This document shows positions 19,991 through 20,033 of a stretch of 64,000 bases of DNA, piece after piece. A program made the translations under genes and the position numbers. Every line of letters begins with the position of its first letter. The first letter of the stretch is position 1. A model generated the notes under the pieces. It searched no databases and had not been told where the DNA came from. It was given only the letters and a program-made list of their open reading frames with translations. This DNA comes from Escherichia coli (GTDB taxonomy: Bacteria > Pseudomonadota > Gammaproteobacteria > Enterobacterales > Enterobacteriaceae), in the NCBI RefSeq assembly GCF_003334815.1, contig NZ_QOWO01000001.1. The stretch is one strand, 5' to 3'.

Positions 19991-20033
19991 AAAAAAATCC
20001 CCGGTAGCGTGTCAGTTGCCGGGGATATTTTTT
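19991..20033. terminator. Bidirectional Rho-independent terminator between convergent yqhH and ygiQ
   Basis: Stem tccccgg/ccgggga (19998-20025) flanked by an A-run upstream and T-run downstream. Confidence 0.6.

Follow-up and report, generated by a model that had tools for sequence, protein, structure and literature searches.

The three hairpins located between the convergent gene pairs yqhH/ygiQ, yghA/exbD, and qseC/ygiZ, in the 64,000-nucleotide stretch of DNA analyzed here (hereafter "the window"), very probably belong to the 3'-end hairpins common to convergently transcribed genes of Escherichia coli; the first would be a two-way terminator, the second would be canonical for exbBD only, and the third would be weak at most. 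An earlier note on this sequence had described all three as shared bidirectional terminators with an A-run on one side and a T-run on the other. Shared two-way terminators of this type are real and already known, and the general statement was only partly accurate. The gain of the present analysis is a correction: one site is symmetric, one has apparently been made asymmetric by a strain-polymorphic REP insertion, and the third is a candidate hairpin bordering a low-GC islet that varies among strains. The evidence consists of the anatomy of the hairpins, their non-randomness, their conservation within the species, and the 3' ends published for yqhH/ygiQ and yghA/exbD, while we infer the Rho-independence, the efficiencies, and any function at qseC/ygiZ.

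The window is a segment of the E. coli chromosome that is nearly identical to that of K-12 MG1655 (seven mismatches in 45 kb and approximately 10 single-base differences in all). It represents a K-12-like strain and not MG1655 itself, because the IS2 that interrupts yqiG in MG1655 (window ∼47200) is missing. Window positions were converted to NC_000913.3 (MG1655) coordinates by adding 3138895, and past window ∼47200 the MG1655 coordinates are offset by a further 1,337 nt (the IS2 in yqiG). The gene names and orientations in the earlier note agree with the MG1655 annotation, which places all three hairpins between convergently transcribed genes:

yghA: ends at 11651, plus strand
exbD: 11923–12348, minus strand
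yqhH: 19732–19989, plus strand
ygiQ: 20032–22251, minus strand
qseC: ends at 32938, plus strand
ygiZ: 32984–33316, minus strand

The convergent gaps are 42 nt (yqhH/ygiQ), approximately 45 nt (qseC/ygiZ), and 271 nt (yghA/exbD) long. All three hairpins were found where they had been placed, and each is single-copy, with a median of one place per genome. An Rfam search at the three hairpins returned no family matches. A stem of this kind is encoded as an RNA hairpin on both strands because it is a palindrome in the DNA, and an A-run beside the palindrome serves as a U-run for the opposing transcript.

The yqhH/ygiQ site (19991–20033) is composed of the following elements:

19991–19997: A7 run, the U7 tract of the ygiQ (minus-strand) transcript
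19997–20026: stem-loop, 8-bp Watson–Crick outer stem ATCCCCGG/CCGGGGAT with a 14-nt interior
20028–20033: T6 run, the U-tract of the yqhH (plus-strand) transcript

On the plus strand, the order is TGA-T-A7, then ATCCCCGG-14 nt-CCGGGGAT, then A-T6. Six of the eight outer pairs are G-C, and the interior provides four extra pairs, on the plus strand only, by way of G-U pairs; the fold reaches −27.3 kcal/mol on the plus strand (z −6.5) and −16.9 kcal/mol on the minus strand (z −3.6). A U-rich tract is present 3' of the stem on both strands (plus, AUUUUUUA; minus, UUUUUUUA). The stop codons lie 5–7 nt from the stem. The TGA of yqhH (19987–19989) is followed in frame by a TAA (19990–19992; tandem stops at 19987–19992), this second stop falling within the A7 run, and the ygiQ stop (TTA on the plus strand, 20032–20034) shares 2 nt with T6. 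The claimed flanks (A7, T6) and the claimed overlap between the minus-strand stop codon and the T-tract were thus both confirmed at this site, and "economical" is a fair description of its layout. We regard it as a textbook two-way intrinsic terminator, predicted to be canonical and Rho-independent in either direction: the hairpin would form in the RNA exit channel, and the weak rU:dA hybrid (U7 for ygiQ, U6 for yqhH) would free the transcript. A classical two-way terminator was reportedly described by Postle and Good, in 1985, between tonB and an opposing gene.

Variation among E. coli strains at this site takes the form that would be expected if the stem and tracts were constrained and the loop were free. 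The A7 run was unchanged across six sampled variants, and the five of them whose junction is intact also kept the outer stem and the T-run unchanged. Of the seven positions that vary in the gap, five fall within the 14-nt hairpin interior; the substitution of A20027 by T gives T8 in three of the five intact-junction variants and in their consensus. In strain RS571, other DNA begins after the hairpin, and the stem has one change. Approximately 140 genomes of this type carry 2.3 kb of foreign DNA, with two hypothetical genes plus IS1, directly after the right arm (at the equivalent of 20026–20028), and their T-run is replaced. In an O158:H23 strain, an IS200C with its own hairpin occupies the place of the yghA/exbD hairpin, and terminator hairpins look like insertion points. 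We also compared 80 ParC-anchored loci from other species. They contained no yqhH homologue and only one ygiZ homologue, and they offer no orthologous hairpin alignment; 3' of ygiQ, the other genera have non-homologous hairpins, often with a U-tract and sometimes also with an A-tract, or REPs. What is conserved after ygiQ is the position of a terminator and not its sequence. In a separate observation, E. coli SCPM-O-B-8794, the GTDB species representative, had no YgiQ match downstream of ftsP; its locus has ParC (98%), FtsP (99%), and QseC (95%), and no ygiZ after qseC.

The yghA/exbD gap differs from this arrangement in the allele carried by the window:

11650–11656: A7 run, the U7 tract for the exbBD (minus-strand) transcript
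11656–11684: stem-loop, 11-bp perfect stem ATGCCCGGTTG/CAACCGGGCAT with a 7-nt loop
11689–11919: two tandem BIME/REP units with a 113-nt period and four REP hairpins, 231 nt

The stem contains seven G-C pairs among 11 and folds with −23.4 kcal/mol on the plus strand and −22.2 kcal/mol on the minus strand. The A7 run overlaps the yghA stop TAA (11649–11651), the downstream flank is CATTGTGAATT, hence no T-run, and the plus-strand tail CATTGTGA is without a U-tract; a U-rich tract 3' of the stem is present on the minus strand (UUUUUUAA) and absent on the plus strand (CAUUGUGA). Between the hairpin and the exbD stop (11923–11925), 238 nt further on, lies the REP array. This array has been named REP222 (supplement of bioRxiv 10.64898/2026.03.23.713779), and Rfam naRNA4 matches it at 11775–11845, with no such match at the hairpin itself (11656–11684).

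Approximately one E. coli genome in three lacks the array: 1,812 of 5,426 genomes did not cover the REP-containing query, and 1,273 genomes fell in the 90–95% identity band with a short query. The REP-less junction reads GGGCATCATTTTTATTTCGC, and its layout is TAA-A7, hairpin, CATTTTTATTTCGC; here the T-run encloses the exbD stop (TTA). This A7-hairpin-T5 allele has the same layout as yqhH/ygiQ, and the description in the earlier note fits it, and not the allele in the window, where the A7 run is present and the T-run is not. We infer an insertion of the REPs in the K-12 lineage rather than a deletion elsewhere; this REP/BIME insertion would have removed the T-run and moved the exbD stop 238 nt off. 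For the exbBD operon, the hairpin in the window would act as a canonical terminator (U7), and for yghA it would be only a hairpin without a U-tract.

The three hairpins occupy the same niche between convergent genes as the REP/BIME 3'UTR elements, and approximately 30% of convergent gaps contain a REP (bioRxiv 10.64898/2026.03.23.713779). Unlike REPs, all three are single-copy and have no naRNA4 match, on which grounds we ruled them out as REPs, whereas the neighboring array at 11689–11919 fits that class.

At the qseC/ygiZ site, we identified the following features:

32946–32979: stem-loop, 10-bp AT-rich perfect stem TCTATGAGAG/CTCTCATAGA plus three inner pairs
32979–32982, plus strand: T4, the sole U-run at the site, on the qseC strand only
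32939–33525: low-GC ygiZ islet, ∼590 nt, GC 0.34 vs. 0.51 for the window

Only four of the 10 pairs are G-C, and the fold has −18.1 kcal/mol on the plus strand and −23.8 kcal/mol on the minus strand. The hairpin begins 8 nt past the qseC stop (32936–32938). The upstream flank CTTCTCTG has no A-run, the plus-strand tail UUUUACUA is a marginal U-tract, and the minus-strand tail CAGAGAAG contains no U; of the flanks claimed for this site, only a T4 exists. The overlap claimed for the minus-strand stop codon also required amendment. ygiZ ends in tandem in-frame stops, TAG-TAA (32981–32986): the stop TAG (CTA on the plus strand, 32984–32986) is one base past T4, and only the second stop, TAA (32981–32983), overlaps it. 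In four sampled E. coli variants, the stem was unchanged, and the first T of T4 was C in two (T32979 is C in Ecol_867 and Ecol_745), which leaves T3 (CUUU in RNA).

This hairpin forms the qseC-proximal edge of the ygiZ islet. The islet is missing in approximately 830 of 5,424 complete E. coli genomes (∼15%), O157:H7 included. Their similarity to the window ends with the final base of the qseC stop, immediately beyond which lies the mdaB upstream region. Short GGTAA/GTAAG similarities were noted at the islet junctions. Among the 80 loci from other species, ygiZ was found at this position only in Pseudocitrobacter, whose qseC-ygiZ gap contains a long hairpin that is likewise AT-rich but differs in sequence and has no U-tracts. 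With its AT-rich stem and U4, the E. coli hairpin would terminate qseBC transcripts weakly at best, as a one-way intrinsic terminator, and on the ygiZ strand it would be a hairpin without a U-tract, part of the low-GC islet; any function at this site is putative. Separately, a motif TTTTGC-N7-GCAAAAGACTTTGCACATTTTGC with a palindrome lies upstream of mdaB (window ∼33531–33570), and this motif recurs 10–60 nt after qseC in Citrobacter, Enterobacter, Kluyvera, Kosakonia, and others; it is probably an mdaB promoter or operator.

The earlier note had proposed 3'-end mapping as a check, and published data provide mapped ends at yqhH/ygiQ and yghA/exbD and, in the sources consulted, none for qseC/ygiZ. 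We used the SEnd-seq list of Ju et al. (2019, Nat Microbiol; Suppl. Table 4) as reproduced in the supplement of bioRxiv 10.64898/2026.03.23.713779, where the convergent-intergenic rows are complete to the footnote of the table and the coordinates refer to NC_000913.3. Entry #395 (yqhG:yqhH:ygiQ) is an overlapping bidirectional TTS at 3158886–3158926 (window 19991–20031) in log phase, with a 41-nt overlap of the opposing 3' ends and 7 A and 6 U in the flanks; the minus-strand end is at 3158886 (window 19991) and the plus-strand end at 3158926 (window 20031). Entry #250 (exbB:exbD:yghA) spans 3150546–3150582 (window 11651–11687), in stationary phase only, with a 37-nt overlap between the exbD (minus-strand) end at 3150546 (window 11651) and the plus-strand end at 3150582 (window 11687). 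Both sites are thus members of this class, with ends that fit the A- and T-runs, and yqhH/ygiQ, with its 7 A and 6 U, is more canonical than the typical member as the authors describe it. The qseC/ygiZ site, unlike these two, is unlisted in the reproduced rows, which have no entry at 31718xx or 31719xx. Five more gaps of the window appear in the table (gpr/yqhA, ygiN/parE, ygiC/ygiD, zupT, and yqiK/sibD), and 306 bidirectional terminators in 704 convergent gaps have been counted across the E. coli genome (bioRxiv 10.64898/2026.03.23.713779).

The TRS data (RNAtag-seq, PMC10687069) place a ygiQ 3' end at 3158882 and exbD 3' ends at 3150776 (window 11881), 3150658 (window 11763), and 3150544 (window 11649). 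The exbD ends at 11881 and 11763 coincide with REP stems, and the one at 11649 falls in the terminator's U7; in a gap of the type found in the window, exbD mRNA has three 3' ends, two of them set by REP hairpins and the distal one at the terminator. The ends at the REP stems may be Rho-dependent and/or exonuclease-trimmed; a bicyclomycin-sensitive Rho region at 3150660 on the minus strand (window 11765; PMC7815308) lies between the exbD stop and the hairpin. The TRS lists contain no termini for yqhH, yghA, qseC, or ygiZ, and because they are silent on the plus-strand genes, plus-strand termination at yqhH/ygiQ and yghA/exbD comes from one data set. None of the three sites has a 3' end in the curated Term-seq lists of Adams et al. 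(PMC7815308), probably as a result of expression thresholds, and the TERMITe supplement had no matches for them. In RNA-seq data (bioRxiv 10.64898/2026.03.23.713779), the baseMean values were 3.1 for ygiZ, which is nearly silent, 188 for qseC, 4,561 for ygiQ, 380 for exbD, and 255 for yghA.

Based on these results, the claim of a shared bidirectional terminator holds for yqhH/ygiQ, which is canonical both ways and has both the Ju #395 entry and the TRS ygiQ end. It holds with qualification for yghA/exbD, where the Ju #250 entry is from stationary phase only and the yghA strand has no U-tract. For qseC/ygiZ it was not supported: the ygiZ strand has no U-tract, the U4 varies, and the site is missing from the reproduced Ju rows and from the TRS and Term-seq lists. 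The same division emerges from a comparison with intrinsic terminators in general. A GC-rich stem-loop, a U-run, an adjoining stop, and published 3' ends in the U-run are found on both strands of yqhH/ygiQ and on the exbD strand of yghA/exbD, whereas the yghA strand of yghA/exbD and the ygiZ strand of qseC/ygiZ are without a U-run, and on the qseC strand the AT-rich stem is followed by no more than U4.

To place the three hairpins among all those of the window, we conducted a census of perfect inverted repeats (stem ≥ 8 bp, loop 3–14 nt). This census was used because a sliding-window MFE scan (44 nt, both strands) failed to discriminate, giving 172 clusters at ≤ −14 kcal/mol. The census found 39 inverted repeats against 11.6 ± 4.1 expected from first-order Markov simulations, and 11 of the 39 were in convergent gaps, which cover ∼1.7% of the window, with exactly one per short convergent gap (nine gaps of 37–57 nt). 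When the A/T flanks were scored, yqhH/ygiQ was two-sided, qseC/ygiZ T-only, and yghA/exbD A-only, and most convergent-gap hairpins of the window were missing a U-tract on at least one strand. The other census hairpins in convergent gaps included the following, with their entries in the reproduced rows of the Ju table:

10054–10074: gpr/yqhA hairpin (#249, 3148943–3148973)
15338–15363: yghB/yqhC hairpin (no entry found)
34573–34597: ygiN/parE hairpin (#253, 3173464–3173495)
42694–42719: ygiC/ygiD hairpin (#254, 3181584–3181617)
44438–44468: zupT/yqiD hairpin, 13-bp stem (#255, 3183328–3183366)
51485–51504: yqiI/glgS hairpin (no entry found)

A simple terminator scan was barely above shuffles (30 vs. 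24.9 and 37 vs. 23.4). It reported yqhH/ygiQ on the plus strand only and yghA/exbD on the minus strand only, and it missed qseC/ygiZ because of the interrupted stem. A promoter-like match at 20015–19986 on the minus strand was dropped, since such matches numbered 14 in the window and 19 in shuffles. Strong palindromes with 10–11-bp stems were also seen outside convergent gaps (22331–22357, 17684–17707, 7855–7880, and 16322–16345), one of them after ftsP, which has a published 3' end at 3161218 (window 22323), and another after yqhD; these are presumably co-directional terminators.

Among the alternatives to the reading in which these are 3'-end hairpins, that of chance palindromes in AT-rich intergenic DNA has next to no probability. 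The near equality of the terminator scan with its shuffles and the 172 MFE clusters would be in keeping with it, but the enrichment, like the mapped 3' ends, refutes it. The folding-energy check proposed earlier bore the hairpins out, with MFE values of −16.9 to −27.3 kcal/mol and z-scores of −3.6 to −6.6 over both strands, and 0 of 200 dinucleotide shuffles folded as well on either strand; moreover, the perfect inverted repeat recurs in all nine short convergent gaps, and 3' ends have been published at yqhH/ygiQ and yghA/exbD. A more serious alternative is collision-driven termination (Ju et al., 2019; Wang et al.), in which the hairpins would mainly be pause sites setting the point at which converging RNA polymerases meet, and release would come from head-on and trailing co-directional collisions and not from the hairpin and U-tract. 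The authors of the SEnd-seq list state that such terminators are mostly unlike intrinsic ones and argue that many of them are poor intrinsic terminators that need collisions; at their ynaJ-uspE element, only 9% of complexes were released in one-direction transcription. In the window, the U-tracts missing on at least one strand of most convergent-gap hairpins (among them the plus strand at yghA/exbD and the minus strand at qseC/ygiZ) and the yqhH/ygiQ stops, 5–7 nt from the stem, a closeness that represses intrinsic termination (PMC4824070), point the same way. However, the U-tracts are full on both yqhH/ygiQ strands, exbD has its U7, and the mapped ends lie inside these tracts, a placement for which the classical mechanism needs no collisions; in addition, convergent partners are expressed at very different levels (ygiQ 4,561 at one site and ygiZ 3.1 at another), so that collisions would be rare for the stronger partner. 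We therefore consider collision as the general explanation to be conceivable but unlikely.

The 3' ends alone cannot tell termination from processing, and the hairpins might be barriers that stop 3'-to-5' exonucleases after transcription has ended further downstream, in a Rho-dependent or diffuse manner. The exbD ends at the two REP stems (11881 and 11763), together with the bicyclomycin-sensitive region at 3150660, indicate that a trimming mechanism operates in the yghA/exbD gap, and processing would best explain the strands without a U-tract (minus at qseC/ygiZ, plus at yghA/exbD), if these have any role. Nevertheless, the ends on both strands of yqhH/ygiQ and the distal exbD end are several nucleotides into the U-run and not at the stem base, which is a signature of intrinsic termination, and the Rho-region lists of PMC7815308 contain no entry at the yqhH/ygiQ or yghA/exbD hairpin; as an account of the hairpins, processing is quite improbable. 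For qseC/ygiZ alone, the hairpin could be a passenger of the low-GC islet, an edge or an indel scar, with no role in ending transcripts. It starts 8 nt past the qseC stop, exactly where the ygiZ-less O157:H7-type genomes diverge, its stem is as AT-rich as the islet, its U4 is not conserved, and no mapped 3' end was found there in the reproduced Ju rows or the TRS and Term-seq lists. Against this, the stem is invariant in the sampled strains, Pseudocitrobacter also has a long hairpin, of other sequence, between qseC and ygiZ, and all other short convergent gaps of the window hold such a hairpin; we judge the passenger reading to be distinctly unlikely. At yqhH/ygiQ in both directions, and at yghA/exbD toward exbD, the anatomy and the ends in the U-runs are explained by the classical intrinsic mechanism. 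On the strands without a U-run (yghA at 11656–11684 and ygiZ at 32946–32979), pausing for collisions, Rho with trimming, or no function is more plausible.

The earlier note had called the overlap of stop codons and T-tracts economical. When the terminator tR2 is placed 8–9 bp from a stop codon, the ribosome represses it almost fully, and termination is maximal only beyond 30 bp (PMC4824070), so the packing at yqhH/ygiQ is not obviously advantageous. Where stops are this close (5–7 nt from the stem) or fall in the DNA of the U-tract itself, the 5' arm would be covered by a terminating ribosome, and the packing may, by this analogy, cost efficiency or couple termination to translation. As a tentative suggestion that we would not press, termination at yqhH/ygiQ and at the REP-less yghA/exbD allele might vary with ribosome lag and/or polymerase collisions, and the REP insertion and the ygiZ indel might be alleles that retune read-through. 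If this were true, natural alleles would retune read-through from yghA into exbBD antisense (REP) and from qseBC into mdaB (ygiZ indel). In either case, the two strain polymorphisms are natural controls for terminator direction and for read-through into qseBC/mdaB and yghA/exbBD.

Elsewhere in the window, gathering-threshold Rfam matches were found at 54520–54669, 54895–55044, 45675–45823, 17626–17689, 729–805, and 62964–63034. The Rfam matches in the window comprise the SIB RNAs sibD and sibE, the FMN riboswitch before ribB, and the sRNA ES173 in the yqhD-dkgA gap, as well as REP-type naRNA4 matches at two further intergenic sites.
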